Shown here piece after piece: positions 26,230 through 45,725 of a stretch of 57,698 bases of DNA (within the stretch, counting starts at the first letter, position 1; the number at the start of each line of letters is the position of its first letter). The notes under the pieces are model-generated. The model searched no databases, had not been told where the DNA came from, and saw nothing but the letters and a program-made list of their open reading frames with translations. Position numbers and translations under genes: made by a program. The DNA is from Aeromonadales bacterium (GTDB taxonomy: Bacteria; Pseudomonadota; Gammaproteobacteria; Enterobacterales; GCA-002770795), in the NCBI GenBank assembly GCA_011322365.1, contig DRNA01000005.1, forward strand, positions 1 to 57,698. Reading direction: 5' to 3'.

Positions 26230-26237
26230 TTTACCTC

Positions 26238-26597: not shown

Positions 26598-26667
26598 ATA
26601 ATATTCTCCTAAAATATCAAAACCTAAATGAATATGTTTTTTTCATATATAATGCTATTTAGTTATT

Positions 26668-28191: not shown

Positions 28192-28234
28192 GTGTCAAAT
28201 CCTCGTTACAGTTTGTAATTGTTTATCTATAGAG

Positions 28235-28504
28235 TTAATCGTTCCAATAAATAGTAAAGTGATCTTCATCATCATCAACATGTCCACCAAAGGAAATCAT
28301 CACTAATTGAATATCCTGAGGATCCCATTCAGCCCCGATCAATTCGCTCACTGTTTCTCTTTTAACCACTAATTTTCCTTCTGCAGAAATACGAACCATA
28401 GCAGGCTGACGATCAACCACTGCGTCTGGATTATCCTGAATAATTGCTTCAATAATAGGACGAGCTTCATCATTGTCCTGTAAAGCCAGAAATACTGTAC
28501 TCAT
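28235..28504 (-). CDS. dmpM: Phenol hydroxylase regulatory protein P2 (MmoB/DmpM family)
   Basis: 89 aa, canonical position. Confidence 0.85.
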   Translation of the reverse strand: MSTVFLALQDNDEARPIIEAIIQDNPDAVVDRQPAMVRISAEGKLVVKRETVSELIGAEWDPQDIQLVMISFGGHVDDDEDHFTIYWND

Positions 28505-28521
28505 TTGTTATTCCCCTGTTA

Positions 28522-29514
28522 TTAACTAATACCATTTTTTTGGGCACGTGAAATTAAAGAATTTTTCACCTCTTGCCATGCTTCGGAGCCATTTTCAATA
28601 GATGCTATAGCTAAGGGTTCAAGTGCCTTTTCTGCTCTTTCAAGCCACTTTGTGAACCATTTAGAAACCAGTATCTTATTTGCTTCGGATTCAGAAGTAG
28701 CCACTGCTATCTGCTTATTAACCCAACGTGAGGATTCGGCAAACCAGTCTACTGTAAATTCGGTCAACATTGTGTAAGCTGTAGCACCTTTAGCATTCAT
28801 CTGTTCTTCAAATTTCTGGAAAAATAATGGGTAAACCAGGCCATCCATAACAAAATTCTGCAAAACAAATAGTTCAAACCAGTCCTCAATAACAAAACTG
28901 TCTTCGACTAAGTTGCGTAATTCCTGCCAGATAGGTTTATTTAACCAGTCGTCCTTTGCATTATCGATAGAAGCCGTATCATTTTCTGAAAGTACCAGAC
29001 CAATACGTGTAATATATTGAGCATTACCTAAATGATCAGCTGCATAAAAACTTGCAGCGGAAGTAAGTGCTGTCCCGTAACCCATGGCGCAGATCTGATA
29101 ATTATTCATATTTCCGCCCCATTCATAATGGCGAAGAGGAATAATAAAGTCCTGAATTTTCTTTTTTGCGTCCTCAGGAATTGTTGCTAACAAAGATCGT
29201 TTTTCAACAAATTTAAAATTATTTTCGGTAGAATCCTGTTGTTTTGCTCGAGTAATAACATAATTACCATAATAAAATTGGCGTGGATCAAGAAACTTAT
29301 ACCAGTCACTCATCACCAACTCTGTACGTGTGGCATCATATAATTCTTTATCTGGCTGCCACGTTGGACGATAGTGAAAATTTTCAGTTGCCTGCAGATC
29401 ATAAACAGCCTCCTGGTATCGACTGGCCTGTTTTCCTTCTCCTATCCGTTTAGCAACATGAGTATATGTTTGCCTGACTGGTTTTATTATCTTTGCTTTA
29501 ATATCAATATGCAT
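28522..29514 (-). CDS. dmpL: Phenol hydroxylase beta subunit P1
   Basis: 330 aa, canonical position and size. Confidence 0.88.
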   Translation of the reverse strand: MHIDIKAKIIKPVRQTYTHVAKRIGEGKQASRYQEAVYDLQATENFHYRPTWQPDKELYDATRTELVMSDWYKFLDPRQFYYGNYVITRAKQQDSTENNFKFVEKRSLLATIPEDAKKKIQDFIIPLRHYEWGGNMNNYQICAMGYGTALTSAASFYAADHLGNAQYITRIGLVLSENDTASIDNAKDDWLNKPIWQELRNLVEDSFVIEDWFELFVLQNFVMDGLVYPLFFQKFEEQMNAKGATAYTMLTEFTVDWFAESSRWVNKQIAVATSESEANKILVSKWFTKWLERAEKALEPLAIASIENGSEAWQEVKNSLISRAQKNGIS

Positions 29515-29579
29515 TATTACTTATCCTCTTTCTGTAAAATTTTTAAGTGAACAAATTTTTTCAAAATAAAACTAAAAAA

Positions 29580-29864
29580 TTATTTTTTAATGCCAGGTTT
29601 ACCATAGCGCCACTTCAACTTATCAAAATCAACCTGAGCTGCCTCTTCTGAGGTCATGTTAATAATATTGTTGTTTGCACAAAAATCCTGATACGCTTCA
29701 AATGGCAGGGCTAACTCAACATAAATTTCTGGCTCACCGATCGCAAAATCAAATTCTATTATTTTATTATGACGTATGCCGGTAATACGAACATAGCGTT
29801 TATTGACATCAAACTTATTGCTGTTATTTTTATCTTCTGATTCTAAATTTGATATTGTGCTCAT
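29580..29864 (-). CDS. dmpK: Phenol hydroxylase assembly protein P0
   Basis: 94 aa. YVRITG...IIEFDFAIGEPEIYVELALPFEAYQDFC resembles DmpK. Confidence 0.8.
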   Translation of the reverse strand: MSTISNLESEDKNNSNKFDVNKRYVRITGIRHNKIIEFDFAIGEPEIYVELALPFEAYQDFCANNNIINMTSEEAAQVDFDKLKWRYGKPGIKK

Positions 29865-29883
29865 ATTTATTTTCTCGACCTGT

Positions 29884-30945
29884 TTAAGGTCTTATTAATA
29901 CCTTCATTGCATCGTCTGATTTATCAAAAAACATTCTATAGGCTTTATCAATATCAACCAGATCGAAATTATGGGTAAAATATTCTTCAGGATTTAAGAC
30001 ATTGCGTTCCATTAAACGTAAACCTTCCCACATAAACGGTTGTACATTAGCAAAACCATTCATGTGTAAGGTAATATCGCGTAAGAAGACATCTGCAAGG
30101 ACCAGATTAAATTCCTGATCACAAAAGACACCAATGGCAGCTATTGTTCCACCGGGACGAATAATATCCAACGCCATTTGTAAGGTTTCGGGATAACCAA
30201 CTACTTCAATAACTTTATCAAAACCCCGCCCATTACAATACGATAATGCCTGCTCCTTACAATCCGTATCATTGGCATTGATTGTTATTGCGCCCTTTTT
30301 AGCAGCCACATCCAGCCGATGTGCAACTTTGTCTATGGCAACAACAATTCCAGCAGCTGAGTTAATAGCAATATCCAGTGCCATCAGGCCCGTCGGGCCA
30401 CATCCAATTAAAGCGACATTTTCACCGGGTTTTATATCTGCCAGTTTGTTGGCTATTATGGCGGACGGTAAATTACAGGAAAGGGTAAGAGCCGCCGCAT
30501 CGGAAATTGCATCAGGGATTATCATGGCATGAGCATCAGCATGAGGTAAAATCAATGCTTCAGAGTGTGTACCATTGAGATCTCCAAATGGGATGCCAAA
30601 TCCATAAACAGCCTTTTGAGTGGTTTCACAATGTGCAGTTTGACCAACTTCACACATGTAACATTCACCACAGGAGCAGGAATAAGCCATTGATATTCTA
30701 TCACCGGGTTTAAACTTACTTACTCTCTTACCAGTTTCTCTTACAATACCGATTAATTCATGCCCTGTCTGTGAACGGCCTTTTTCCATAATGGGATCCA
30801 TCGCCCCTCTATAGAGATGTAAATCAGAACCACAAATAGAAGTTGCTGAGACTTCAACTAGAACCTCATGATCAGCTTTTAACTCAGGTTCATCCACATC
30901 AATTGTTTTTATATTTTCTTCACCAAAATAAACAGCGGCTTTCAT
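29884..30945 (-). CDS. Zinc-dependent alcohol dehydrogenase (MDR superfamily; resembles the glutathione-independent formaldehyde/aryl-alcohol dehydrogenase subgroup)
   Basis: 353 aa. Catalytic-Zn ligands (ICGSDLH, GHELIG), structural-Zn C-x2-C-x2-C-x7-C (CSCGECYMCEVGQTAHC) and NAD fold LIGCGPTG. Confidence 0.85.
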   Translation of the reverse strand: MKAAVYFGEENIKTIDVDEPELKADHEVLVEVSATSICGSDLHLYRGAMDPIMEKGRSQTGHELIGIVRETGKRVSKFKPGDRISMAYSCSCGECYMCEVGQTAHCETTQKAVYGFGIPFGDLNGTHSEALILPHADAHAMIIPDAISDAAALTLSCNLPSAIIANKLADIKPGENVALIGCGPTGLMALDIAINSAAGIVVAIDKVAHRLDVAAKKGAITINANDTDCKEQALSYCNGRGFDKVIEVVGYPETLQMALDIIRPGGTIAAIGVFCDQEFNLVLADVFLRDITLHMNGFANVQPFMWEGLRLMERNVLNPEEYFTHNFDLVDIDKAYRMFFDKSDDAMKVLIRP

Positions 30946-31113: not shown

Positions 31114-31129
31114 AGCACTTTCTATGCCA
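31114..31129 (-). promoter_or_regulatory. Sigma-54 (-24/-12) promoter upstream of the ADH-dmpKLMNOP... string
   Basis: Minus strand reads TGGCATAGAAAGTGCT, with GG and GC at the exact canonical spacing. It lies 169 nt upstream of ATG 30945 in a 309-bp intergenic gap. Confidence 0.6.
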
Positions 31130-31183
31130 AAAGAATTAACCGTAATCTTAAGGCTCCAGACTAGCTCCACACGATAAAATTTG

Positions 31184-31197
31184 TTCAAATGACAAAA
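31184..31197. promoter_or_regulatory. Candidate enhancer (UAS) motif shared with the 39.9-kb promoter region
   Basis: TTCAAATGACAAAA is identical to 39959..39972. It is embedded in the dyad TTGTTCAAATGACAA and followed 20 bp later by TTGTTATTTCATCAA. Confidence 0.35.
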
Positions 31198-31254: not shown

Positions 31255-32745
31255 TTACTGATAATCTCTTAATTGATCTATATCAAATTGTTCATCTGTC
31301 ACGTTTTCGGAACGGTTATCCCATTGAGGTGTCATAAAGAAATAATTTACTCTATGGTTAATTGCGTTATAAATAGTAATATGACGCCATTGAGAATCAC
31401 CGTCAAATGGGCGCCAGGCTCGACTATCATCCCATATTCTAAAAATATTGTCCCTCTGATCGGTCGTCCTCTCATACTGTGAATAATAGGTTTCCATATC
31501 AATATATAGAGTACGTTTCTTGTACTGATAACTACCACTTTTATCGATAATTTCTAATATCCAGACTGGCCTCAATTCAAGTTCCAACTCATCCCATTTG
31601 CACTTATCATTATTAAATTTACCGGAATTGTAAATATATCCAACTTCTGGTGAAGCCAGAATTAATTTCTCGCCAACAAGTTTGTATTCGAACTGAGAAC
31701 GATTCGTTTTTACCCAGTAACTGCGCCAGTCATCCCAGGTAACTTCTAATCCGGCCCACATGGGATCCTGTGCGTCTGCTCCTGAAAGTGTTCTTGTCCT
31801 TCTCATTGCTGGTAGGAAAACTTTGAAATCATCATGTTTTTTTCCATTTGCATATCGTTGTCTTATTCCAGCAAAGCCTCGTACATCATAGGGTTGATAA
31901 GCGTACACTGCCCCCCCTTCTACAAGCTCTTCCTTATCATCTACATCCCTCTCATCTCCAATCTGGGTTCTTCCATGATATTTTTGCCACCAGATAGCTG
32001 ATTTATATTTATAGTCAATATTTCCTTCCTGGCTACAGGATAAAGTTATCACAGGATCAAGAGCCAAAGTTTCAGTACCCACACCATAAGCTACAAATGA
32101 CCACATTAACTCAAGTCCATTTTCTGGTTTTATGTAGGGAATGGCAGCAGCGGTTTCAGAATTTAATAACATCGCTGTTCCATCAGGGTTTCTGAGGGTA
32201 TCTTCACTATCTGTATACGGTACTTTTTTATTATTAATCAGATTTCTAGTTGCAGCCAGAACACCTTTATTCTGATAGTAAGTATTTGTTGGTATAATAG
32301 ATGCCTGTTTTACAAACCCTTTTCCGGAAAGAATAGAATCGTATATTTCTTTTGGTAAATACTCTTTCAGCCAGGGCATACTATTAATATTGCTGGATGA
32401 TATGTGTAATCCCGGTTTCAATTGCCCAGGTAATTTGTATCTGGCAATTATATCGTAAGCATCATACCCCCTTAGATTCCGCCAGGCAGTTGCCAGTTTA
32501 ATTGCCTCTGGGTTTTCTAAGGCTTTAAGCCATCTCCTATGGTTTATATTTTGTGTACTCTGGCTAAACTTTTTCCAGTTATGCAGAAGTTTATTGCTTA
32601 CTTCAGCGCTATCAACATTGTTAACCATATAGAAAGCAAAAGATAAGCTTAAAACAAATCTTCCTGAGAAAGAAAAAGGAGCCCTGTAAAAAAGGCTCCC
32701 TTTGTTTGTTTGAGTTTCGTTACAACTCTTCTTAGTGACTAACAT
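31255..32745 (-). CDS. DUF1329-family (LolA-like) periplasmic/outer-membrane-associated protein, divergent subtype, copy 2 of a tandem pair
   Basis: 496 aa and collinear with the 32763..34190 paralogue: LKPGL.I...N......WLK.YLP.EIY, PT.TYY, DDFKVF.P..RRTR.L.G.DAQDP, W.DWR.YW.KT....FEYKLVGE..ILASPEVGYIY and the C-terminus F(D/I)(V/D)DQLRDYQ. Confidence 0.7.
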   Translation of the reverse strand: MLVTKKSCNETQTNKGSLFYRAPFSFSGRFVLSLSFAFYMVNNVDSAEVSNKLLHNWKKFSQSTQNINHRRWLKALENPEAIKLATAWRNLRGYDAYDIIARYKLPGQLKPGLHISSSNINSMPWLKEYLPKEIYDSILSGKGFVKQASIIPTNTYYQNKGVLAATRNLINNKKVPYTDSEDTLRNPDGTAMLLNSETAAAIPYIKPENGLELMWSFVAYGVGTETLALDPVITLSCSQEGNIDYKYKSAIWWQKYHGRTQIGDERDVDDKEELVEGGAVYAYQPYDVRGFAGIRQRYANGKKHDDFKVFLPAMRRTRTLSGADAQDPMWAGLEVTWDDWRSYWVKTNRSQFEYKLVGEKLILASPEVGYIYNSGKFNNDKCKWDELELELRPVWILEIIDKSGSYQYKKRTLYIDMETYYSQYERTTDQRDNIFRIWDDSRAWRPFDGDSQWRHITIYNAINHRVNYFFMTPQWDNRSENVTDEQFDIDQLRDYQ

Positions 32746-32762
32746 TACAGAATATCGAAAAA

Positions 32763-34190
32763 CTATTGATAATCGCGTAATTGGTCAACATCAAACATTT
32801 CATCAGTAATACGATCACCTCTATCATCCCAGTTAGGAGTCATAAACAAAGTTGACATTCGTTTTAAAATATAATTATTTACCATAACCGAACGCCACTG
32901 AGCATCACCTTCTGTTGGCCGCCATGCTCTACTATCTTCCCAGTTTCTGAAAGGATTTCCTCGAGGGTCCCAGGTCATGTGGTATTGCATATAGAAAAAT
33001 TCTTTATCTACCCAGGTTCTCCTTTTGGAGTACATGTATTTACCAGTTTTATCAATGATATCCAAAATCCAGACAGGTCTAAGTTCCATTTCCATAGATT
33101 TATAGTTACACTGATCTTTAGTGAGTACCGAAGAATCATAAATATAACCAACTTCGGGCGAAGCTAAAATAAAGGTTTCGCCTACAAGTTTATATTCAAA
33201 CTTATCAACATCGGTTTTCCCCCAATAGGCTCGCCAGTCATCCCATGTCAGCTCCTGACCGGATGCTATAGGATCCTGTGCATCGGAACCCGTTAATACA
33301 CGTGTACGACGTAAACTCGGAATGAACACTTTAAAATCATCATCTTTTCCAGCTTCTGGATAACGTTGTCTTACACCAGCCAGTCCTCTGATATCATAAG
33401 GCTCTTTAAAAAATACTGAACCACCCTCAATATAATCCTCTTTTCCTTCAACATCTCCAAATGGAGCAACATTCTGTCTATTGTGATAATGCCACCACCA
33501 TAAATCAGCTTTAAACTCACTATCTATTTTACTATCCTCTGTACATGCTCTCATGTGTATGGGTTCAAAATCCAGGGTGTCAGTATCTACAGAGTGAGCG
33601 ACATAGTCCCAGTTTAATTCCAGACCATTTTTTGGATGAAGAAAAGGAATTGATGTGGCACCAGGACCTGACATCAAGGCATATTTTCCATCAGGATAGA
33701 CAAGTTCACCTTTTTTATTAATTTGAAGTTTTATATTTTTGTCTTTTAACTCCTGCGTTCCTTTAAGATAACCTTTATGCATGTAATAAGTGTTAGTGGG
33801 CACTATGGTTATTTTCTCAATATGACTCCACTTCGAAGTAAGATGATTATATATTTCATTAGGTAAATAATCCTTTAACCATTTGTATTTATTCATGTTG
33901 TCTTTGGTAATAACCAAACCTGGCTTTAACTCAGCCGGAAGTTTCACTTTATCTAACAGATCATACGCATCATACCCTCTTAGATCCTTCCACTTTTTAG
34001 CAAGTGCTATGGCCTCAGGTTTAGAAATTTCAGCAACCCATTTTTTATAGTTAGGGTTATCAGATTTAGCAGCAAAAGCTTTCCATGCTTCAAGTGCTCT
34101 ATTTGTATCAGCAGCAGATACCTGATGTGTCAATGAGACAGCAAGTAAACTGAATACTCCTATGATAATTCTATGTTTCATAATGTTCAC
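32763..34190 (-). CDS. DUF1329-family (LolA-like) protein, divergent subtype, copy 1 of a tandem pair
   Basis: 475 aa with a clean signal peptide (..LTHQVSA-AD). Same architecture as above. Confidence 0.75.
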   Translation of the reverse strand: MNIMKHRIIIGVFSLLAVSLTHQVSAADTNRALEAWKAFAAKSDNPNYKKWVAEISKPEAIALAKKWKDLRGYDAYDLLDKVKLPAELKPGLVITKDNMNKYKWLKDYLPNEIYNHLTSKWSHIEKITIVPTNTYYMHKGYLKGTQELKDKNIKLQINKKGELVYPDGKYALMSGPGATSIPFLHPKNGLELNWDYVAHSVDTDTLDFEPIHMRACTEDSKIDSEFKADLWWWHYHNRQNVAPFGDVEGKEDYIEGGSVFFKEPYDIRGLAGVRQRYPEAGKDDDFKVFIPSLRRTRVLTGSDAQDPIASGQELTWDDWRAYWGKTDVDKFEYKLVGETFILASPEVGYIYDSSVLTKDQCNYKSMEMELRPVWILDIIDKTGKYMYSKRRTWVDKEFFYMQYHMTWDPRGNPFRNWEDSRAWRPTEGDAQWRSVMVNNYILKRMSTLFMTPNWDDRGDRITDEMFDVDQLRDYQ

Positions 34191-34211
34191 CTATTTTAGT
34201 TATCCTAAATA

Positions 34212-36167
34212 TTAATATTGGTATGTGACAGATAATTCGATAAAATCTTTATCATTGAATAATCCGATGGGAGCAACTTCCTTACGCCCTTTAAAATACT
34301 GGTATTCAAGACGTGGACGCCAGTGCTTTCCAAAATAATTAAAATCAATCCTTTGTCGATACGAAGTACCATTCGCATCCACATTTCTTATATATAACCC
34401 CTCTAAAACTAGACGTTGCGCATCGATAGGAGCACTCCACAAGAAAGTCACATAATTTTGATTGGAGTAAACTTCAGAAAGACCATAAGGAGCCTGAGCC
34501 ATTAAATGGTCGGCATTTTTAGTATGAATATTAAACCACTGAAAACTGGTAAAAATAGATTTTTGTTGACTATCCCAACCGGGTACCCATAAAGGATAAT
34601 CAAAGCCCAACATAATTGAAGTTACATCTCTTTTGGTTACCGCATCCGCAGGAGTCACAAAATTGGCAACAGCTCCCAACTCAGATTGACCAGGTACAAA
34701 AGGATTTCTCACCAGACTCCGATTAAAAGGTTTATCAAACTCATAAGATATTTCGGTGCGAAATGATGGTGAGGTATTTTTCGGTCCAAATGACATCAGA
34801 TCGCCCATATCACGAGTAAAACTGAGACCGATCACCTTTTGACGCATAGTATAATCGAGCTGCATATTGACCGTTACTGAACATTCGACCCCTGTTCCAC
34901 CAGGATCATTAACAGGATCATTACAGGCACCAGCCGTAAGGGCAGTTAAAGGGCTCGTAGTTAACGGGCCGGTTCCAGCTGCTCCACGCAGAAAAGGTAA
35001 ATAGCCGGAGGGGTTTCCAGGCGTGGCAACTATAGCGCCAGGGTCGGTTAAATCAGGAGCCCAGAGAGCAGCAAGAAGGGTTTGATGATCAACATCAACA
35101 TTAGCCGCAGATGCTGATGGATCATTAACCCCTGAACCTACATGTACCGTTGCTCCCTGCATCCTGGCAATTGGCAAGTCCTGGCGACCATAAAAGGCAT
35201 TAAGAGTCATAGTTCCACCTAGAGTTTCAAATTTCAATCTGGCTGAAACTTCAGGGTCTTTGAAAGAAAAATCACTGGTTTCGTTATCAATAAGTTTTGC
35301 TCCAAAAGCAACGGCACCTAAACCAGATTGATGTGGAAGACCAACGTCAACGATATCGGGCCATGGCAAACCGAAAAGTCCTCCATCTGAGCGATCAGAG
35401 GGCGTTGGATTATTTACAATTATTCTGCTGTGCCGTATCTCTGGCACAATATTAAGTTCTAGTACCGGACGATGAATACCTATAGCTTCAAAAGGTTTGG
35501 CTATACCCATCTTACTGAAATTAAAATCTGTGGAAATCATCCATGCAGGCAGACGGATCTCATCGGAGTCCTTAAAAACAAAACGTTCGCGCAGATCCTG
35601 AGCATGTAAAATATCTAGTAATCTTAATCCATCAGATTGTCCCCAACCTCGTTGAAATTTACCAATTTTTGCCGTAAATCTACGTTTTGGATCTCTATAT
35701 TTAAATGATAACTCCCGAATTATATCGTCGTTAAAATTGGAAAGAAGATCCATCTGATTATTGGGTGCACAAAACTGACGATTTGCCAAATCACAGACAC
35801 TGGTACCATGTTGAAAACTTCCACTAGGGAATGGAGGCCCTGCATGTAGATTTTTTAATCCACCTTTTTGATCAATATAATCAGGATCATTGGCCGTTCC
35901 TCTCAACCAGAAGTTACCGATAAATGTCATATTTCTATTCGCTCGATAACCCATTTTAATTTCACCGAGAAAGTTTGACGGGCCTTCAGTACTGGAACCG
36001 GCACCTTCGAGATCCGTCAATACAGAAACCCCTGCTTTTAAACGACCGTCCACAGTTAATCCTTTAACGCCCGTATCGATAGCTAGAGACATATCACTTA
36101 CTAAAAAGCAAATTAATGCAGTAAGACCTATTTTATAAATTTTCATTTTTTCCTCCGCGTGTTTCAT
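34212..36167 (-). CDS. DUF1302-family outer-membrane beta-barrel protein
   Basis: 651 aa with a signal peptide (the start may be M8, MKIYKIGLTALICFLV..). Alternating beta-strand pattern and an aromatic C-terminus (..SVTYQY). Paralogue of 48693..50657, in the same position relative to the RND and DUF1329 genes. Confidence 0.7.
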   Translation of the reverse strand: MKHAEEKMKIYKIGLTALICFLVSDMSLAIDTGVKGLTVDGRLKAGVSVLTDLEGAGSSTEGPSNFLGEIKMGYRANRNMTFIGNFWLRGTANDPDYIDQKGGLKNLHAGPPFPSGSFQHGTSVCDLANRQFCAPNNQMDLLSNFNDDIIRELSFKYRDPKRRFTAKIGKFQRGWGQSDGLRLLDILHAQDLRERFVFKDSDEIRLPAWMISTDFNFSKMGIAKPFEAIGIHRPVLELNIVPEIRHSRIIVNNPTPSDRSDGGLFGLPWPDIVDVGLPHQSGLGAVAFGAKLIDNETSDFSFKDPEVSARLKFETLGGTMTLNAFYGRQDLPIARMQGATVHVGSGVNDPSASAANVDVDHQTLLAALWAPDLTDPGAIVATPGNPSGYLPFLRGAAGTGPLTTSPLTALTAGACNDPVNDPGGTGVECSVTVNMQLDYTMRQKVIGLSFTRDMGDLMSFGPKNTSPSFRTEISYEFDKPFNRSLVRNPFVPGQSELGAVANFVTPADAVTKRDVTSIMLGFDYPLWVPGWDSQQKSIFTSFQWFNIHTKNADHLMAQAPYGLSEVYSNQNYVTFLWSAPIDAQRLVLEGLYIRNVDANGTSYRQRIDFNYFGKHWRPRLEYQYFKGRKEVAPIGLFNDKDFIELSVTYQY

Positions 36168-36185
36168 TATATTTTTACTCTTTTA

Positions 36186-38531
36186 TTACACTTTAATTTC
36201 ATTGTTATTTTCTGTTTTTGGAAATAGTGACCTAGGATTAAAAATGGATAAAGCTGCTGGAACAAATAATAAGGAGCCCAGCATATTCATGAATAAAACA
36301 ACACCGAGTAACAATCCCATTTCTGACTGAAACCTTAAAGGAGACATGAAAGCCCAGGGCAATAATGGCCCAATCATGGTAACCGCCGTTATAAAGATGG
36401 CATTACCTGCCGAAAGAAATGCATGATGAATAGCTTCCACCATATTACCCCCAGCTTTGGCTAATTCTTCCTTAATTCTATCGACCATATAAATACCATA
36501 ATCGACACCCAAACCCACACCTAATGCAGATAGTGGTAAAGTACTAACATTTAAACCAACACCTTTCCAGGCCATAAAGGCGTAGGTCAAAGCATTGGCA
36601 GTTGCCAAACTAAACAGGAGTATTAAACCAACCACCAGAGAACGATAGTAAATACCAATACTAACGGCAATGACCAAAACAATTGCTATCATGATCTTTA
36701 AATTAGATTCTGCAATTTCATGGTTTAAAGCTTCGGTTAAACCCACCTGACCTCCACTAAATAAGAAGTCTGCATCACTAACCAGTTCATTTTTATGGCT
36801 AAAGAATTCTTTCAGAGTTTTAGTTAGATTCCGTATAGTTGGTACGCTATGATCTTCGAGAAAAAAAGTAACGTTACCAATTTCCCATTCTTTATTAGTA
36901 AACGCAGCGAAGTCACCAGGTTCACCTCGAGATCTATACATATAAATATCAAAACCTATTTCTTCTTTGGTATCCGGTAAAATTTCATAAGAAGGATCAC
37001 CTTCATACAATACTGAATTAACCAGTTTAATAACCGGAACCAGACTTTGTGCAGGTCTTACTTCTAACATGTGTTCGTACATATATCGGTCAAGAGCTTC
37101 TGTTTGATGATAAACTTTAGGATCAAGCATCGTTTGCTTATTCCCTTCAATATAGACCTGCATCATATCCGTTCCCAGGAATGAGAAACGTGTATTTATA
37201 GACTCTGAATCGGAATTAAATCTTGAATCCTGCCATAAAATTGCACTCCCTTTAGTATCACCTATTGTTAAATTTGTTGCATAATATAAACCGACAGAAA
37301 ATAAAATAAGAGATACTATAACCATTATATATTTGTGATCTTCCATATTAATAACTGCAGACCAGATTTTATTTAATATGATTGATCCTGTTTTGTGTCT
37401 TCTTGGAGGTTTAAGCAAACAAAGAACTGAAGCAGCCAGAATTAATGCAGGAGCAATGGATAACAACCATAAACTGGAGATAATAGCCAAACCTTTTATG
37501 CTTGGAATTGCTACTAATCCTAAAACAGCAAAACCCGCAGCATCAGTAATAATAGCAGCGGTGCTCGGAATAAGTATTTTGCCTAAACCTTGAGAAGAAC
37601 ATCCTCTTAAATTTTTGATACTTTTATCTTGCTCACTGAAATTATCCAGTACACGGGTTGTCAACTGCACGCCATGAGAAAGTACAATGGCAAAAATAAA
37701 GCCTGGTAACAATACCAACAAAGGATCCAGGTTGTAACCCATCGCGCCCATAACGCCAAGACCCCATATGGTTGCTATGGTTGCTGTAAACATTGGAATG
37801 AAAACACCAATCCATGTTCTAAAATAAAGATATAGAATTAACGCGACTATGAATAAAGAAACTAGCATTATGGGTAAAACAGAAGAGAGTGATTTATATA
37901 TATATCCTAATAAAATAGGTCGACCAACAGCATGAATTGTGATTCCACTATCATTACTTTCATATTTTTTCTGTATATCCGTAACAAAATTCAATACTTT
38001 TTCAAAATCTGCTTCATCTTTAAAATCAGCAATGATCATTGCTGATGATTCATCATCTGAAACAAGAAAGCCCCTGTACTGATTATTGACTGAACGTCTG
38101 AACTTTTGCATTTCAGCTTCATTTGCTGGAATATTCGGCCATAAAATAGCATCAACTTCAACTTTGCCTCCTCCTCCAGAAATAGCTTTGGTTTTACGAA
38201 GTATAAGGGATTGGCTTAAATGTCTTTTTGTATCAGGATTATAAAAAACATCTTCAGCTATCTTCTTATAAGTTTTCAGAAAATCTTCAGAATAGATAGT
38301 TCCCCTTTGGTTTTTTACTTCTATCAGAGTAGTATTTGCTCCACCAAACTGTGCTCCAAAGCGCTTGAATAGCTCAACATTATTAGCGCCTTCAGGTAGC
38401 ATTTCCTCCAACACAACATTCAGAGACAGGCCTTTGTACGCGTAATAGCCCGGAATTAATGTAATTAATAATAAAATAGTGACTAACCAGCCGGCATGAC
38501 GGAAAATTAAACTTGTAATAGCCTTATTCAT
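36186..38531 (-). CDS. RND-superfamily permease of the COG1033/MMPL (HpnN-like) type
   Basis: The ORF track extends to 38546. I prefer ATG 38531, which gives the same ATGA stop/start overlap with the upstream BNR gene as in the paralogous module (53088..53091). Two 6-TM bundles with two large periplasmic loops. No membrane-fusion or TolC gene is adjacent. Confidence 0.85.
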   Translation of the reverse strand: MNKAITSLIFRHAGWLVTILLLITLIPGYYAYKGLSLNVVLEEMLPEGANNVELFKRFGAQFGGANTTLIEVKNQRGTIYSEDFLKTYKKIAEDVFYNPDTKRHLSQSLILRKTKAISGGGGKVEVDAILWPNIPANEAEMQKFRRSVNNQYRGFLVSDDESSAMIIADFKDEADFEKVLNFVTDIQKKYESNDSGITIHAVGRPILLGYIYKSLSSVLPIMLVSLFIVALILYLYFRTWIGVFIPMFTATIATIWGLGVMGAMGYNLDPLLVLLPGFIFAIVLSHGVQLTTRVLDNFSEQDKSIKNLRGCSSQGLGKILIPSTAAIITDAAGFAVLGLVAIPSIKGLAIISSLWLLSIAPALILAASVLCLLKPPRRHKTGSIILNKIWSAVINMEDHKYIMVIVSLILFSVGLYYATNLTIGDTKGSAILWQDSRFNSDSESINTRFSFLGTDMMQVYIEGNKQTMLDPKVYHQTEALDRYMYEHMLEVRPAQSLVPVIKLVNSVLYEGDPSYEILPDTKEEIGFDIYMYRSRGEPGDFAAFTNKEWEIGNVTFFLEDHSVPTIRNLTKTLKEFFSHKNELVSDADFLFSGGQVGLTEALNHEIAESNLKIMIAIVLVIAVSIGIYYRSLVVGLILLFSLATANALTYAFMAWKGVGLNVSTLPLSALGVGLGVDYGIYMVDRIKEELAKAGGNMVEAIHHAFLSAGNAIFITAVTMIGPLLPWAFMSPLRFQSEMGLLLGVVLFMNMLGSLLFVPAALSIFNPRSLFPKTENNNEIKV

Positions 38532-39706
38532 TTTTGTGTATCCCATCGACTTGAAATGAGTTTAATATTTGTAGAAGCGCCTAATTGTTCTACTTGCTTG
38601 AAGGTCATTTGCGAGACATTTCCTTTAACAACAAGCCCTCTTATTCCAACTGCCCAAAAAGTACCATCTGGTGTAATTGAAACACCTCCTAACCATGAAA
38701 AATCAAGAGAAAAACCATCAGACTTTTTGATGGCTGAAATCTTATTATTCTTAATTTTTACTATAACCGAACGCCCGACAGCCAAAGCTGTTCCATCTTT
38801 TCCAACTGTAATATCAAAAAGATGTTCAGAGGTATTACCTGGGTATTTTGAAAGCACGTATTCTATTGCTGGTCTATATGTCAAACCTTTTTCAGGGGGG
38901 ATATACTTCCTATGTTTTCGTTTTGCCTTTGCTCTAGCCTTGGCTTCTTTTTTCTTATTTTTTATTTTTACGCTTTCGTCAATTGCCAATCTTTCGTCTT
39001 CAGTTGCTACGGTTAAACCAACTATTGTTCCCTCTAAACCAACAACGTAAATAGAATCATTATTACCATCAACTGATAAATAGGTGATTTTGTTGTCTAC
39101 AGGTGTTACCACCCAATGTTGCCCTCCATCTTCGGTATGTGCAATTACACCAAATTCTCCCACAGTGATAGCTGTATTTTTGTTTATGATATAAATACCA
39201 TGTAAGCGTGGAGTATCTCTTCCAGTGAAGCCTGTTAAAACTTGTTTCGTCCAATGTTTTCCACCATCTTCTGTCTTCCAGATATTCGCTTCATGACCAA
39301 CAACCCAGCCAATATTCTTGTCTATAAAGGCCACATCCCTCAAATATATATTATCTACATGGTGTTGAATGGCCCAATGACTACCACCATCAGTCGTATG
39401 AAAAATATCTCCTCTATGGCCGACAGCCCAGCCATTATCTTCATCGACAAAAGAAACTTTACGAATAAGTTCATTTTTCCCGATATAATTTGCCTGCCAG
39501 TTTTTGCCTCCATCATGTGTTGTTAGTACAGTACCTCCATAGCCAGCAATAACACCAAATTCATTGTTTACAAAGTCCACAGCAAATAGATTATCAGGCC
39601 AGAGCCTCTTCACTTTTTGGCTTTCATTGGCTAGTAAGTTAATACCATTGATTGTAATAAGAACATAAAATACGGTTTTAACAAACTGCTTCATAGAATT
39701 ATTCAA
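38528..39706 (-). CDS. BNR/Ycf48-like beta-propeller protein (secreted)
   Basis: 392 aa with a TTG start 5 nt after GAGGGG. Repeated D-G-G-x-x-W motifs (THDGGKNW, TTDGGSHW, TEDGGKHW, TEDGGQHW). N-terminal signal-like helix. Confidence 0.8.
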   Translation of the reverse strand: MNNSMKQFVKTVFYVLITINGINLLANESQKVKRLWPDNLFAVDFVNNEFGVIAGYGGTVLTTHDGGKNWQANYIGKNELIRKVSFVDEDNGWAVGHRGDIFHTTDGGSHWAIQHHVDNIYLRDVAFIDKNIGWVVGHEANIWKTEDGGKHWTKQVLTGFTGRDTPRLHGIYIINKNTAITVGEFGVIAHTEDGGQHWVVTPVDNKITYLSVDGNNDSIYVVGLEGTIVGLTVATEDERLAIDESVKIKNKKKEAKARAKAKRKHRKYIPPEKGLTYRPAIEYVLSKYPGNTSEHLFDITVGKDGTALAVGRSVIVKIKNNKISAIKKSDGFSLDFSWLGGVSITPDGTFWAVGIRGLVVKGNVSQMTFKQVEQLGASTNIKLISSRWDTQK

Positions 39707-39814
39707 AAGAACCCCTCAACAAAACTTTCTTATAAATTATTATTATCATCAGTTACAAAATTAATCTTAATTCTGCTCACTGGTATTTAAAATCATTCTC
39801 ATCCACATTAATAA

Positions 39815-39830
39815 AGCAATAATTAAGCCA
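39815..39830 (-). promoter_or_regulatory. Sigma-54 (-24/-12) promoter upstream of the BNR-RND-DUF1302-DUF1329 module
   Basis: Minus strand reads TGGCTTAATTATTGCT, with GG and GC at canonical spacing and a perfect -12 TTGCT. It lies 109 nt upstream of start 39706. Confidence 0.6.
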
Positions 39831-39859
39831 ACTACGCGCCATGCCAACAAACTCTTTGA

Positions 39860-39872
39860 TATCAAATAGTTA
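39860..39872. promoter_or_regulatory. Candidate IHF site between the enhancer motif and the -24/-12 promoter
   Basis: TATCAAATAGTTA fits WATCAANNNNTTR exactly. It lies 30-42 bp upstream of the -24 element. Confidence 0.35.
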
Positions 39873-39958
39873 CAGCTTTCTTTTCAAGTGATTCTTACAG
39901 AGGGGGTTTTTATTATTGTATGTAATATCGTGATATGGCAGAAAATAATAGATTGTTT

Positions 39959-39972
39959 TTCAAATGACAAAA
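39959..39972. promoter_or_regulatory. Candidate enhancer (UAS) motif shared with the 31.2-kb promoter region
   Basis: TTCAAATGACAAAA is identical to 31184..31197. It lies ~130-140 bp upstream of the -24 element, a typical distance for XylR/DmpR-type activators. Confidence 0.35.
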
Positions 39973-40111: not shown

Positions 40112-41812
40112 TTATAATGTCAAATCATGCTTCTTTAAACGATACCTGAACTGAGCATCACCCATTTTAACCATTCTTGCTGCTGCTGATACATTTCCCT
40201 TTGCTAAAAGTAAAGCTTCCTTTAGAAAATTCTTTTCTAGTTCTTCATATGCTATACCTTCTTTTATCAATTTTGAAATTGGCTTTTCAACTTCATCTTC
40301 TATTGCAGCGAGGACTCCTGAATCATTTAATCGAGATTCTGCATTAACTTTTTCTGGTTGTAATTGTCCCATTAAATGTTCTGTGCCTATATATTGATTA
40401 TTTTTAGTTAACAAAACACCTCGTTCAATAACATTTTCTAATTCACGGATATTGCCAGGCCAACTATAATTACCAAACCATTTCATTGCCAGATCAGTTA
40501 CTCCAAGAACTTTTTTACTGTATTTGATATTATTTCGTTTAATAAATTTTTGTATTAAACCGCTCAGATCTTCCAAACGTTCTCTTAAGGGGGGAATGGT
40601 TACTGGAAATACATTTAAGCGATAATATAAATCTGCTCGAAATTCTCCCTGCTTTACTTTTTCTGCCAGGTCTTCATTTGTCGCGACGATAATACGAACA
40701 TCAACTTTTCTGGTTTTAACATCGCCAACTCGATCAAATTCACCAGTCTGCAACACTCTTAATAATTTTGACTGAGCTCTTGCTGAAAGCTCACTTAATT
40801 CATCTAAAAATAATGTGCCTCCATCAGCCCTTTCAAAACGGCCAGCTCTAGATTTTTCTGCACCCGTAAAAGCTCCTTTTTCAACACCAAATAATTCAGC
40901 TTCAATCAGATCCTCCGGTAATGCAGCACAGTTTACCGCTACAAATGGTTTATCAACCCGATTAGAAATTTTGTGTAATACCTGACTAAACACTTCTTTG
41001 CCAACACCGGTCTCACCTAACATCATTACAGTGACGTTACATTCGGAAGCCGTTTTGATTAATTTAAGTGCTTCCTTCATACTATTAGAATCACCAATTA
41101 TTTCTTCTGGCTGAACTTGTTCATTTAAATGAGATCGTAACTCACTGACTTCATCTTTTAATGTATATAGTATTTCTGCAATGGGTTTATTTGAATGAAA
41201 AAAAGAATTTTTTTGTTCCGCCTCACTCCATTCATCCAAGGGCTTACCCACTATTTTGCAGTGTTTATCTCCTTTTCCAATGCATTCAACTTCTTTATAT
41301 AAAATTGGTTTCCCCATGAACTCACTTGTGTAGCCACTAGCATAGCCAAGTAGTTGCCAACAAACCGGGCTTTCTGATTTTCCTAGAATACGTAAATGCT
41401 CAGCAGCTTCAAATGAATTAGTCCAGATAAACACTCCCGAAAAGTCGCCATTATCAACATCAATCTCTAAGGTTTCAGGCGTAACCGAGACGATGCCTTC
41501 CAAAGCATGTAATTGAGGACCAACAATGAAAGTATCCAGAACACTGCTTTCCGGCCTTAATTGTTTTGCGAGGATTACATCTTTTTGTGCAGAGGAATAA
41601 CCCATTCTCATGAGTACACCCTTAGCATACTCTTCTCCAAAAGAAGATATAAGCTCACTACGCATCGAACCGAAAGCGGTTGCGTGGAGTAAAATCATCC
41701 GTTGTTGACCTAACCAGATATACCCTGACTCTTCATCAAATCGGATCAATCCCTTAAGATCCTGATTATCATGAACAATGGTTTGATCATTGAGAATTAC
41801 TTTTTCTGTCAA
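40112..41812 (-). CDS. Sigma-54-dependent transcriptional activator of the XylR/DmpR (aromatic-sensing NtrC) family
   Basis: 566 aa with a TTG start. N-terminal XylR_N/V4R-type sensor (IWLGQQRMILLHATAFGSMRSEL; V4R Cys pair CIGKGDKHC). AAA+ core with GETGVGKE, GAFTGA and RADLYYRL. C-terminal Fis-type HTH. Confidence 0.92.
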   Translation of the reverse strand: MTEKVILNDQTIVHDNQDLKGLIRFDEESGYIWLGQQRMILLHATAFGSMRSELISSFGEEYAKGVLMRMGYSSAQKDVILAKQLRPESSVLDTFIVGPQLHALEGIVSVTPETLEIDVDNGDFSGVFIWTNSFEAAEHLRILGKSESPVCWQLLGYASGYTSEFMGKPILYKEVECIGKGDKHCKIVGKPLDEWSEAEQKNSFFHSNKPIAEILYTLKDEVSELRSHLNEQVQPEEIIGDSNSMKEALKLIKTASECNVTVMMLGETGVGKEVFSQVLHKISNRVDKPFVAVNCAALPEDLIEAELFGVEKGAFTGAEKSRAGRFERADGGTLFLDELSELSARAQSKLLRVLQTGEFDRVGDVKTRKVDVRIIVATNEDLAEKVKQGEFRADLYYRLNVFPVTIPPLRERLEDLSGLIQKFIKRNNIKYSKKVLGVTDLAMKWFGNYSWPGNIRELENVIERGVLLTKNNQYIGTEHLMGQLQPEKVNAESRLNDSGVLAAIEDEVEKPISKLIKEGIAYEELEKNFLKEALLLAKGNVSAAARMVKMGDAQFRYRLKKHDLTL

Positions 41813-41945: not shown

Positions 41946-42155
41946 TTATAACGAACCTTTATTTTTTAAGTCCATATCTGCCTTACTTATACCACCTACT
42001 GCCCAGTGCTCAGCTGGCACTTCATTGATTACTACTCTCACTTGTTCAGGTTTAACAGATAATGTTTCTACTGCAACAGCAGTCACTTTTTTAAAAAATT
42101 CTTTTTTCTGTTTTTCAGTTCTACCTTTAATGATAGTAGTTTGAATTAATGGCAT
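41946..42155 (-). CDS. dmpI: 4-oxalocrotonate tautomerase
   Basis: The ORF track extends to 42218 and overlaps dmpH. ATG 42155 (behind GGGGA) gives MPLIQTTIIKGRT.. with the catalytic Pro1, 69 aa. Confidence 0.85.
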   Translation of the reverse strand: MPLIQTTIIKGRTEKQKKEFFKKVTAVAVETLSVKPEQVRVVINEVPAEHWAVGGISKADMDLKNKGSL

Positions 42156-42169
42156 TTCTTTATGTCCCC

Positions 42170-42961
42170 TTAAACAAAATTCATACTGATTGACCCCAGA
42201 TCCTGATAACGTACACAAACATTATCCCCGGGCTTAACCGCCACTGCAGCTGTGATTCCACCGGTCATAATGAAGGTCCCGGCCGGAATTTCTTCATTTC
42301 GTTCTGCCAGCATATTGGCTAACATGGCAACGCTTGCCGCTGGATGACCCAGCACCGAAGCTCCAGCACCTGTGGCAACTATCTCTCCATTAATCTCCAT
42401 TACAACACCCAGTGTTTTTAAATCCAGATTTTCAATCCTTTTTACGTTCCCACCGGTAACAAATCGAGATGATGAGGCATTATCGGCAACGACGCTTTTT
42501 AAATCAAAACGAAAATTTTCATATCTTGAATCAATAATTTCCACTGCTGGCAAAACAGAACTAATGGCATCCAGCACATGGGCTACGGTACAACCCGGTC
42601 CACGTAAAACTTTATTGGTTATAACCGCAATTTCTGCCTCAACTTTAGGATGGATCAATTCATCTGTTTTAACGCTTCCACCATCCGGTACACTAAAATA
42701 ATCAGCCAAAAATGCATATATGGGTGTATCAACACCCATCTGAGACATTTTGGCATAAGAAGTCAGGCCCATTTTAAGTCCAACAATCCGGGTGCCTCTT
42801 TCTTCTTTTCTACGGCGAATTTCCCACTGAATATCATAAGCGTCCTCCCAATCCATGTCTGGATAATCATCTGTGATTTTTTTAACATCAAAAGCCTGTA
42901 GCTCTGCATTTTCCAGATGTTCAGCTAATTCAGCAATAACTTCTTTGCTTAAGGTACTCAT
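42170..42961 (-). CDS. dmpH: 4-oxalocrotonate decarboxylase
   Basis: 263 aa, near-collinear with remembered DmpH (AEHLENAELQA.D..K.T.DYP.M...DAY.IQWEIRRRKEERG..IVGLKMGLTS..KM.QMGV.TPIY.FLADYFSVPDGG). Located between the aldolase and tautomerase genes. Confidence 0.9.
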   Translation of the reverse strand: MSTLSKEVIAELAEHLENAELQAFDVKKITDDYPDMDWEDAYDIQWEIRRRKEERGTRIVGLKMGLTSYAKMSQMGVDTPIYAFLADYFSVPDGGSVKTDELIHPKVEAEIAVITNKVLRGPGCTVAHVLDAISSVLPAVEIIDSRYENFRFDLKSVVADNASSSRFVTGGNVKRIENLDLKTLGVVMEINGEIVATGAGASVLGHPAASVAMLANMLAERNEEIPAGTFIMTGGITAAVAVKPGDNVCVRYQDLGSISMNFV

Positions 42962-42964
42962 GTA

Positions 42965-43978
42965 TTATGCTCCTGCTCTTATCATTTCTAATGCTACATC
43001 TTCTATCATATCTTCCTGTCCGCCCACAGTTTTTCTGCGGCCAAGTTCAAGTAGGATTTCCCTGGAGGGGATGCCATGTTTTTTCTCTGCACGCTTTGCA
43101 TGAAGCAAAAATGAAGAATAAACACCGGCATAACCCAGGGTTAATGCATCTCGGCTTACACGGGGTAATTTATCACCCATAATGGGTGTTGCAACATCTT
43201 CTGCCGCATCCATTAAGGCATTCAGATCAACATTAGTCTGAATGCCTTTCATATCGCAAACTGCAGCAAAAACTTCCAGCGGTGTATTTCCAGCTCCTGC
43301 ACCAAAACCGGCAACTGAACCATCAATTCTATCAGCGCCAGCTTCCACGGCAGCGATAGAGTTAGCAACACCCAGACCCAGATTATGGTGGCCGTGAAAA
43401 CCCAGTTCCAGATCAGGAAAGGCATCTCGCATCATGGAGATTTTTCGAGTAACTTCTTCCGGTAACATATGACCGGCCGAATCGGTAACATAGAGACAAT
43501 TGGCACCGTACCCAGCCATGTATCGAGCCTGTTCTACGATTTTTTCTGCTGATAACATATGGCTCATCATGAGAAAGCCAACCGTATCAAACCCCCGGTC
43601 AGCTGCATAGCTAATATGTTGTTCTGAAACATCAGCTTCGCTACAGTGGGTTGCAACACGAACCGTTTTCACTCCAACATCTTCCACCATTTTCAGATCA
43701 TCCACAGTACCAATGCCAGGAATAAGCAAAATAGAAACGCTGGCGTGTTTAAGTGATGGGATTACAGCCTGCAGATATTCTTTGTCAGAATGTAGGGCGA
43801 AACCATAATTAACCGAGTCACCCGCCAGGCCGTCACCATGGGTCACTTCAATTAAGGGCACCTTTGCCCTGTCTAATGCCTGGGACAAATCTTTCATGTT
43901 TTCTAATGTAAATTGATGAGCAATGGAATGCATTCCATCACGTAACGACATATCATGAATTTTAATAACTTTACTCAT
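42965..43978 (-). CDS. dmpG: 4-hydroxy-2-oxovalerate aldolase
   Basis: 337 aa with [10 protein letters not shown] and the [13 protein letters not shown] metal/active-site motifs. Confidence 0.93.
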
Positions 43979-43984
43979 TATTAC

Positions 43985-44884
43985 CTACCCCTCTGACGTA
44001 TCTTTTAACATTTGCTCAGCGAACATCTCCGCTGTTTTGGCAGCGGCGGCGGTCATAATATCCAGGTTACCGGCATAATCGGGTAGATAATCACCTTTTC
44101 CCCTGACCTCCAGAAATATAGAAACCCGCTTACCGTCGAAAACCGGCCCTTCTTTAATTCGGTAACCTGGTACATAACTCTGCACTGCTTTTTCCATATC
44201 TAATACCGAACGTGTTATCGCTTCCTCATCAGGGATATCTTTTGTCAAACAATGGATGGTATCTCTCATCATCAGTGGGGGCTCTGCCGGATTTAGAATG
44301 ATAATAGCTTTTCCTCTTTCCGCGCCACCGACCTTTTCTATGGCTCCCGAGGTGGTTACGGTAAATTCATCAATATTCTTTCGCGTCCCCGGGCCTGCTG
44401 ATTTTGATGAAATTGTCGCAATGATTTCACCATAATTGACAGGCTGAATGCGACTGACCGCATAGACCATTGGAATAGTCGCCTGTCCACCACAGGTCAC
44501 CATATTAACATTATCTTCACCTTTACCCAGATGAGATTGCAGATTAACTGGCGGCACACAAAATGGTCCTATGGCAGCAGGGGTCAGATCAATCACTTTA
44601 ACACCCTGTGCTACCAGCTTTCTTGAAGTCTCAGGATGGACATAAGCTGAGGTTGCGTCAAATGCAATACGAATATCATCTTCTGCTATATGGGGAAGGA
44701 GTCCATCTACACCTTCATGAGTAATTCTTAAACCTTTATCCTTTGCTCTTTTAAGTCCTTCTGATTCGGGATCGATACCTACCATCCAGGCAGGTTCCAG
44801 TACATCACTTCTGAGTAATTTATATAATAAATCAGTACCGATATTGCCTGGACCAATTAATGCACAACGTATTTTCATCTTCAT
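43985..44884 (-). CDS. dmpF: Acetaldehyde dehydrogenase (acylating)
   Basis: 299 aa with [12 protein letters not shown] and the catalytic Cys in [13 protein letters not shown]. The start may be the ATG two codons in. Confidence 0.93.
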
Positions 44885-44900
44885 TTATCCTGTTACACAA

Positions 44901-45695: not shown

Positions 45696-45725
45696 TATTT
45701 TTCCTCATATATTCTTTGAAAACGC

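Follow-up and report, generated by a model that had tools for sequence, protein, structure and literature searches.

The 57,698-nt contig analysed here over its whole length (the window; DRNA01000005.1 of assembly GCA_011322365.1) comes from a metagenome-assembled genome (MAG) of an uncultured organism labelled 'Aeromonadales bacterium'. Judged by its sequence, it carries a real five-gene operon, module A, which encodes a four-part envelope system. By family content this module belongs to the PhnJKLM/AmeABCD-type four-component systems and is a new example of a known, poorly understood system. Module A lies behind a sigma-54 promoter and is probably co-induced with the aromatic monooxygenases encoded in the same window.

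Module A consists of five minus-strand genes at 39706-31255. In the order of transcription, the activator gene (41812-40112) is followed by a 405-bp intergenic region and then by the genes for the BNR propeller, the RND permease, the DUF1302 protein and two DUF1329 proteins, A1 and A2:

40112-41812, minus strand: XylR/DmpR-type sigma-54 activator, 566 aa (Pfam XylR_N, V4R, Sigma54_activat, AAA_lid_14 and HTH_8)
38528-39706, minus strand: Ycf48-like BNR beta-propeller, 392 aa (Pfam PSII_BNR and a Sec signal peptide)
36186-38546, minus strand: HAE3/MMPL-type RND permease, 786 aa (Pfam MMPL and ACR_tran)
34212-36167, minus strand: divergent DUF1302 outer-membrane beta-barrel, 651 aa (Pfam, hhalign and AlphaFold2)
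32763-34190, minus strand: DUF1329/LolA-like periplasmic protein A1, 475 aa (Pfam DUF1329 and LolA_like)
31255-32745, minus strand: DUF1329/LolA-like paralogue A2, 496 aa (Pfam DUF1329)

The open reading frame (ORF) coordinates give a 19-nt overlap of the first two module genes, followed by gaps of 18, 21 and 17 nt, and a terminator scan found no intrinsic terminator after the activator gene or after DUF1329_A2. An earlier examination of the letters alone (the sequence-only reading) had described five co-directional, tightly spaced genes for a secreted propeller with DGGxxW repeats, a 12-TM RND/MMPL-type permease, an outer-membrane barrel of about 650 aa and two LolA-like DUF1329 proteins, lacking membrane-fusion and TolC-like partners, and had proposed a profile search of these families. 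The spacing agrees with this description, and the profile search, which was run, places all five proteins in Pfam families. Likewise, no member of the HlyD/MFP or TolC/OEP families was found by Pfam among the window ORFs of at least 150 aa. The individual protein assignments were also borne out, as detailed below.

The propeller reached 84.5 bits against PSII_BNR/Ycf48 in Pfam and matched the Ycf48 structure PDB 2xbg (E 5e-18). It has four exact copies of the DGGxxW repeat in addition to the Sec signal peptide. Its start codon is TTG, and the public gene call comprises 388 aa from an ATG at 39694. The permease scored 97.8 bits against MMPL, besides its match to ACR_tran, and its hydropathy profile shows some 12 hydrophobic segments, with a pair of periplasmic loops each about 180 aa long; the public gene call of 781 aa starts 5 codons downstream of the 786-aa ORF. 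Its best NCBIfam model was TIGR00921 (HAE3), which was matched over the full length with 159 bits, under the cut-off of 352. The permease residues G-V-D682-Y683 align with the Asp-Tyr motif of MmpL3 TM4/TM10, and none of D274, D682 and Y683 varies among 14 homologues with identities down to 28%, which makes the protein look like an active proton-coupled transporter. A classical HAE1 permease (about 1,050 aa) was excluded by the length of 786 aa and by a score of 26.3 bits against RND_permease_1, the cut-off of which is 1250. Identity with the exporters HpnN, MmpL3 or BstA was also rejected, the NCBIfam scores being 27.6 versus 1100, 24.3 versus 1400 and 17.7 versus 1400, respectively.

The DUF1302 protein is a divergent family member. 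Its Pfam score was 43.9 bits versus a gathering score of 23.2, with the match confined to the C-terminal part. A profile built from 31 homologues aligned with the canonical DUF1302 protein of the window with an hhalign probability of 94.9% (E 4e-8), and both window proteins carry the motif GKxQxxWGxxDxxRxLD. The protein has a signal peptide and the C-terminus ...VTYQY, and its AlphaFold2 model is a beta-barrel (pLDDT 78.6, pTM 0.76). The best PDB matches of this model in Foldseek were 16-18-stranded general porins (MOMP, OmpF, OccAB1, OprB) with TM-scores of only 0.3-0.55, and no FadL-family barrel occurred among the top 50 matches. DUF1329_A1 matched DUF1329 with 79.9 bits and LolA_like with 46.4 bits, has a Sec-type signal peptide and matched PDB 9tp6, an 'outer membrane lipoprotein-sorting protein' (E 3.6e-8); its AlphaFold2 model, derived from a 4-sequence alignment, was unusable (pLDDT 35.5). 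DUF1329_A2 scored 66 bits against DUF1329, shares 49% identity with A1 and has orthologues with 55-58% identity in three of the related loci described below (L002, L007, L008).

The novelty of the module implied by the sequence-only reading did not hold, since the cassette has been in print since 2012 (PMC3318190, PMC6394551, PMC6449761) and has also been treated in randomly barcoded transposon sequencing (RB-TnSeq) and AlphaFold-Multimer studies. The three functions proposed in that reading, namely uptake, export and envelope remodelling, are plausible, but the same alternatives have already been published. Hickey et al. (2012) named the set PhnJKLM in Delftia sp. Cs1-4, where all four proteins rise on phenanthrene, and noted that the cluster occurs widely, beside oxidoreductase genes, among Alpha-, Beta- and Gammaproteobacteria, some of them marine (PMC3318190). 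Compared by family, PhnJKLM comprises the same four families inside an aromatic (phenanthrene) catabolic cluster; it differs from module A in gene order and in its partner, a ring-hydroxylating dioxygenase instead of diiron monooxygenases, and sigma-54 control was not described for it. DUF1302 and DUF1329 proteins were found in outer-membrane vesicles ('nanopods') of Delftia induced on phenanthrene (PMC3110197). A Delftia DUF1329 mutant has been reported, as cited in PMC13101534, to grow poorly on phenanthrene, and the four-family set was highly expressed in an anaerobic benzene degrader (PMC13101534).

Deletion of ameABCD in Castellaniella defragrans 65Phen resulted in poor growth on hydrocarbon monoterpenes, in a drop of limonene tolerance even on acetate and in increased Nile Red accumulation, and a 'tetrapartite' HAE3 exporter was proposed for AmeABCD (Puentes-Cala and Harder, 2018; PMC6394551). 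Again compared by family, AmeABCD consists of a DUF1302 protein, a LolA-like DUF1329 protein, a COG4447 Ycf48-like protein and an HAE3 RND permease of about 787 aa. As in module A, these lack a membrane-fusion protein (MFP) or TolC partner and are encoded in a hydrocarbon catabolic island; the ame genes are substrate-induced. The ame gene order is DUF1302-DUF1329-BNR-RND with one DUF1329 gene, whereas module A has BNR-RND-DUF1302-DUF1329-DUF1329 with two, and the module A proteins are very divergent (43.9 bits for DUF1302). Furthermore, the ame host is a betaproteobacterium living anaerobically on monoterpenes, in contrast to the context of aerobic benzene, toluene and phenol degradation found here.

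Suvorova and Gelfand (2019) predicted the four families in the AphR (XylR/DmpR), AphS (GntR) and AphT regulons of Betaproteobacteria, in some genomes co-transcribed with phenol hydroxylase genes, and suggested a role in solvent stress (PMC6449761). Two of these patterns recur in the window, XylR-type control with module A and a GntR gene beside a second module (module B, see below). The Aph-regulon sets are betaproteobacterial and the window is from a gammaproteobacterial marine MAG; in both cases regulation is predicted. The four-family set is also annotated in the phenol hydroxylase cluster of Zoogloea oleivorans. In genome-wide fitness data of Price et al. the four genes were co-fit in several bacteria (Shewanella, Pseudomonas); the authors suggested that a cell-wall component is exported and also listed DUF1329 genes in aromatic and steroid clusters (bioRxiv 072470). 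Thompson et al. found P. putida PP_0765/0766 and PP_2018/2019 to be required on Tween 20 and butyl stearate and dispensable on laurate and myristate (2020.07.04.188060). The latter genes and Sama_1588-1591 of Shewanella amazonensis represent the same four families and are co-fit in transposon screens; the Pseudomonas set differs from module A in being split over two loci, in its LuxR-type regulator and in its phenotypes on fatty esters rather than aromatics. In AlphaFold-Multimer predictions DUF1329 has two alternative partners, the DUF1302 barrel and the BNR-RND pair (Foldy and ECLIPSE papers, 2024 and 2026; PMC10866462, PMC13499233).

More distant parallels are provided by other RND systems. 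Module A may work similarly to SepABC and TtgDEF, which are RND-driven, solvent-induced and encoded beside aromatic catabolic genes, although it comes without their TolC-like channel and membrane-fusion protein and has an MMPL/HAE3-type permease of about 780 aa, unlike their HAE1 permeases of about 1,050 aa. The ttgDEF genes are linked to tod. In P. putida F1, the solvent pump genes sepABC adjoin the tod island (PMC3056050). With HpnN, MmpL3, BstABC and NPC1/NPC2, module A shares a small RND protein with two modest extracytoplasmic domains, a conserved Asp-Tyr motif, a probably very hydrophobic cargo and soluble or outer-membrane partners. The partner proteins of these systems belong to other families, and the scores of the module A permease lie far under the cut-offs for HpnN, MmpL3 and BstA. 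The alkane-uptake proteins AupA/AupB were rejected as relatives, AupA being FadL-like and DUF1302 and DUF1329 going unmentioned in the respective paper. For PahS/PahP of Cycloclasticus, which are described as a TonB-dependent receptor and a substrate-binding protein, no link was established, and their sequences were not compared.

The probable co-induction with the monooxygenases is suggested by elements in the two promoter regions that flank the module:

39815-39830, minus strand: -24/-12 sigma-54 element TGGCTTAATTATTGCT (strict TGGC-N7-TTGCW)
39850-39872: 22-bp palindrome AACTCTTTGAT/ATCAAATAGTT, overlapping an IHF-consensus match at 39860-39872
39959-39972 and 31184-31197, minus strand: 14-mer TTTTGTCATTTGAA, candidate activator-binding element (upstream activating sequence, UAS), in both promoter regions
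31114-31129, minus strand: TGGCATAGAAAGTGCT, a second sigma-54-like element, within the 309 bp that follow DUF1329_A2

The sequence-only reading had pointed to a -24/-12 element 109 nt upstream, an exact IHF-consensus match, a 14-mer common to the module and phenol hydroxylase promoters and a sole, directly adjacent sigma-54 activator of XylR/DmpR type, and all four were recovered. The element TGGCTTAATTATTGCT (39830-39815) fits the GG-N10-GC pattern, and its 3' end lies 109 nt ahead of the TTG start of the propeller gene. The 14-mer TTTTGTCATTTGAA occurs in exactly two copies in the window, at the positions listed, and is a candidate activator-binding site; an inverted-repeat search found no palindrome pair at it. 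Between the 14-mer and the -24 element sits the palindrome with the IHF match, an arrangement reminiscent of Pu/Po-type promoters. The IHF match alone is weak evidence because the consensus is not enriched, with 9 matches in the window versus 6 expected. The protein encoded at 40112-41812, the only sigma-54 activator in the window, has the domains of its type in Pfam and is 47% identical to XylR of pWW0 over 552 aa (E 4e-160).

In the phenol hydroxylase promoter, a 12-bp near-palindrome ATTTGAACAAAT (31179-31190) was noticed that overlaps the 14-mer at the latter's 3' end and resembles what we take to be a XylR half-site, TTGANCAAAT. Its counterpart in module A reads ATTTGAAAAACAAT and differs in spacing. 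The sequence TTGNNCAAAT, presumably a XylR-like half-site, likewise has its sole match at 31179-31190 and is not enriched in the window.

Linkage and promoter type were followed in a comparative survey, in which the window proteins were mapped onto 77 loci that a scan of species-representative genomes had yielded. The order BNR-RND-DUF1302-DUF1329 was kept in 42 of these loci, here termed A-type. For 29 of the A-type loci, 15 kb or more of sequence was covered; among these, a diiron monooxygenase was encoded within 10 kb in 12, a XylR-type activator in 11 and at least one aromatic-pathway gene in 17. For the 34 non-redundant A-type loci from other genomes, a -24/-12 element (score of at least 9 of 11) was found 90-150 nt before the propeller gene in 11-13 cases from at least 7 lineages. 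This is about 20 times the background in the same DNA (0.02 per 200 nt), and no such element was present before B-type loci. These counts make the predicted sigma-54 control and the monooxygenase linkage properties of the lineage rather than accidents of one contig. The suggested link to aromatic monooxygenases, for which a neighbourhood survey had been advised, is thus strengthened by 12/29 loci with a diiron monooxygenase and 11-13/34 with the promoter element.

That the juxtaposition is incidental, the module having a general envelope function and the -24/-12 match being fortuitous or served by another activator, seems highly improbable to us. By chance, a window of this size should contain the strict pattern TGGC-N7-TTGCW about 1.25 times; it was matched twice in the 57.7 kb, TGGCTTAATTATTGCT being one of the matches. 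The IHF consensus is not enriched, and about 40% of the related loci have no aromatic gene within 10 kb. However, the intergenic location, the strand and the distance of TGGCTTAATTATTGCT are all correct, the element recurs in independent lineages far above background, the 14-mer is shared solely with the phenol hydroxylase promoter, and the monooxygenase linkage is far above a random expectation that we estimate at about 1-2%.

The genes of the window were found with 98-100% amino-acid identity on an ENA metagenome contig (L001). Homologues of the permease and the DUF1302 protein with 45-79% identity are encoded by marine Gammaproteobacteria (Cycloclasticus, Porticoccaceae, Halioglobus/Seongchinamella, Neptuniibacter) and some Alphaproteobacteria, the Cycloclasticus carriers including cultured species. 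Betaproteobacterial relatives of the permease in the genome scan share 30-33% identity, and plasmid 2 of Aromatoleum EbN1 carries an annotated set in the same gene order as module A. In Candidatus Seongchinamella marina IMCC8485 (L041, NZ_SHNP01000008.1), a phenol hydroxylase, a XylR-type activator and an A-type module behind TGGCACCACATTTGCA occur together, with 71% identity to the window for the permease and 67% for the DUF1302 protein.

Several related loci differ in gene content. In Cycloclasticus and relatives, A-type modules are adjoined by a divergent gene for a 326-aa MDR-type (quinone-oxidoreductase-like) dehydrogenase, located about 300-1300 bp upstream of the propeller gene on the opposite strand (L002/L014, L007, L008, L010-L012, L015, L017, L022). 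These dehydrogenases are 58-84% identical among themselves and 23% identical to the alcohol dehydrogenase of the window; their position echoes the 2012 remark on phnJKLM sets beside oxidoreductase genes. In two loci from Cycloclasticus MAGs (L010, L012), at about 12.5-20 kb, one BNR-RND pair is followed by two successive DUF1302-DUF1329 pairs, and a pair of DUF1329 genes occurs in L017. Specialists for polycyclic aromatic hydrocarbons thus have the outer-membrane and carrier parts in amplified form.

We infer the protein contacts, cargo, induction and direction of module A as follows. The operon would be read from its sigma-54 promoter, most likely activated by the upstream XylR/DmpR-type regulator, and a parallel second sigma-54 promoter most likely drives the genes for alcohol dehydrogenase, phenol hydroxylase, catechol 2,3-dioxygenase and toluene monooxygenase. 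Because of the presumed XylR/DmpR-type control, the module would be made when effectors of benzene, toluene or phenol type are present. The proton-driven permease would reside in the inner membrane with the propeller presumably on its periplasmic face. Soluble DUF1329 carriers may pass hydrophobic cargo between the RND-propeller complex and the DUF1302 outer-membrane barrel, and owing to this handover the cargo would never be unshielded in the aqueous periplasm. The favoured direction, by a small margin over uptake, is outward: aromatic hydrocarbons or phenolic products would be cleared from the inner membrane, and the module would serve as a tolerance device. We give such an efflux system close to even chances. 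It is favoured because of the tolerance phenotype of the ame deletion and because characterised bacterial RND systems, to our knowledge, all work outward; MmpL3, for example, moves its cargo away from the inner membrane. The same applies to HpnN (PMC6394551).

Several observations weigh against this scheme. Regarding common induction, the spacing of the 14-mer from the -24 element differs between the promoters (about -161 in module A versus about -87 in the phenol hydroxylase promoter). Alignment of the upstream regions of 12 related loci at the -24 element revealed no motif in common with the 14-mer of the window. Regarding direction, the growth phenotypes of P. putida on Tween 20 and butyl stearate and of Delftia on phenanthrene fit uptake better. 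A-type carriers are mostly marine hydrocarbon specialists such as Cycloclasticus, for which scavenging seems more useful than efflux. Finally, the DUF1302 barrel could be an entry route, because no FadL/XylN-type channel is encoded in the window or near A-type modules; this was determined by tblastn with XylN of pWW0 (FadL family) as the one query, an insensitive search.

The same machine running inward would provide high-affinity uptake of poorly soluble aromatic hydrocarbons, which we consider somewhat unlikely. The barrel would admit the substrate, the DUF1329 proteins would ferry it, and the RND-propeller complex would unload it into the inner membrane using the proton gradient. This agrees with the requirement for PP_0765/0766 and PP_2018/2019 on the two fatty esters and not on laurate or myristate, with the phenanthrene induction of PhnJKLM and the reported impairment of the DUF1329 mutant as cited, and with the concentration of the lineage in marine hydrocarbon specialists, some Cycloclasticus loci even having extra DUF1302-DUF1329 pairs. 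The lack of FadL/XylN-type channels points in the same direction, as do the porin-like outer part instead of a TolC tunnel and the soluble carrier instead of a membrane-fusion protein; the negative tblastn result is, however, limited by the insensitivity of the single FadL-family query. An analogy exists in NPC2, which hands cholesterol to the RND-family protein NPC1. On the other side, we know of no bacterial RND transporter that works inward, small aromatics are passively membrane-permeant, so that an energised importer is not obviously needed, and the ameABCD deletion mutant was less tolerant to limonene even on acetate and accumulated more Nile Red. If uptake proved true, the view of hydrocarbon entry into Gram-negative cells and of the capabilities of RND proteins would change. 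Module A might then be the first bacterial RND system to run inward, by analogy with NPC2/NPC1, with one of A1 and A2 specialised for the outer-membrane side and the other for the inner-membrane side, and with modules A and B differing in cargo or direction, a combination that we regard as unlikely.

A third possibility concerns an endogenous cargo. Module A might deliver an envelope lipid or a hydrophobic cell-wall component to the outer membrane or to vesicles, the envelope being hardened or remodelled under solvent. Export of a cell-wall component is what Price et al. proposed from pleiotropic co-fitness in Shewanella and Pseudomonas, DUF1302 and DUF1329 proteins occur in the phenanthrene-induced Delftia vesicles, and the nearest characterised RND relatives, MmpL3, HpnN and BstA, carry lipids, though the scores are far under the cut-offs. 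A dedicated aromatic-sensing activator and recurring catabolic operons for very different substrates fit this poorly, no lipid-biosynthesis genes are linked in the window, and a single housekeeping lipid would hardly account for a catabolic island with two deeply divergent modules. We therefore judge a lipid cargo to be improbable. The efflux reading stays the favoured one.

The surroundings of module A contain two further groups of genes:

25165-30945, minus strand: Zn-alcohol dehydrogenase (29884-30945), then phenol hydroxylase P0-P5 (Pfam); catabolic neighbour, outside the module
54077-47350, minus strand: module B, with genes for a BNR lipoprotein, an RND permease, a DUF1302 protein and a DUF1329 protein (Pfam)

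The module had been placed directly upstream of the phenol hydroxylase operon. The adjacency is correct, but the operon is headed by the Zn-alcohol dehydrogenase gene and not by a phenol hydroxylase gene. A co-directional run at 17732-30945 comprises genes for the Zn-alcohol dehydrogenase, the six-subunit phenol hydroxylase, a ferredoxin, catechol 2,3-dioxygenase and a small unassigned ORF, and ends with a complete six-gene toluene/benzene monooxygenase and a semialdehyde hydrolase gene. Presumably, the genes behind TGGCATAGAAAGTGCT are co-transcribed from the Zn-alcohol dehydrogenase through the semialdehyde hydrolase. Together with the genes at 41946-47192, this run represents a full route from benzene or toluene to acetyl-CoA on a single contig.

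Module A is not the only module of its kind in the window. Module B, the canonical one, scored well above module A in Pfam (DUF1302 153.6 bits, DUF1329 233.9 bits). It is located directly upstream of the meta-cleavage lower-pathway genes and divergent from a GntR/FCD regulator gene (54318-55010), and its 240-bp upstream region contains no sigma-54 element. The two permeases share 28% identity and the other components 21-25%; at this level of identity the modules are ancient paralogues and not products of a recent duplication. An orphan DUF1329 gene (57314-56037), the product of which is 46% identical to the DUF1329 protein of module B, precedes a gene for a PanE/ApbA-type reductase (56022-55024); between the orphan gene and the contig end on its upstream side lie 384 bp of non-coding sequence. 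Each module lineage is thus accompanied by a second DUF1329 gene and an oxidoreductase gene, A2 with the Zn-alcohol dehydrogenase and the orphan with the PanE-like reductase.

The four-protein set is widespread among Proteobacteria that degrade hydrocarbons or lipids and has repeatedly been found to be induced on hydrophobic substrates. To this picture the locus adds a complete island from benzene and toluene to central metabolism with two ancient paralogous modules and two regulator types, and it widens the predicted sigma-54/XylR-type control of the cassette so as to include a large lineage of marine Gammaproteobacteria. Divergent proteins, another gene order, duplication of the carrier and a predicted sigma-54 control throughout mark this lineage. 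Our findings confirm and extend published comparative genomics and open no new category. Cultured relatives in which efflux and uptake could be distinguished are the Cycloclasticus species and Candidatus Seongchinamella marina IMCC8485.

Two further regulatory elements were noticed in the window. Module B is separated from the semialdehyde dehydrogenase gene by 157 bp, which contain a 13-bp inverted repeat, ATCAGCTGGTCGG-N10-CCGATCAGCTGAT (about 47273-47305, minus strand). This repeat may act as an attenuator or as a regulator site and was skipped by the terminator scan because its loop exceeds 8 nt. The other strict -24/-12 match, TGGCATTGATATTGCT (5472-5487, plus strand), lies about 95 nt before the gene of a Gcw_chp outer-membrane protein (5581-6306), which is followed by an ammonium transporter gene (amtB, 6696-7988), and is probably a nitrogen-regulated sigma-54 promoter.

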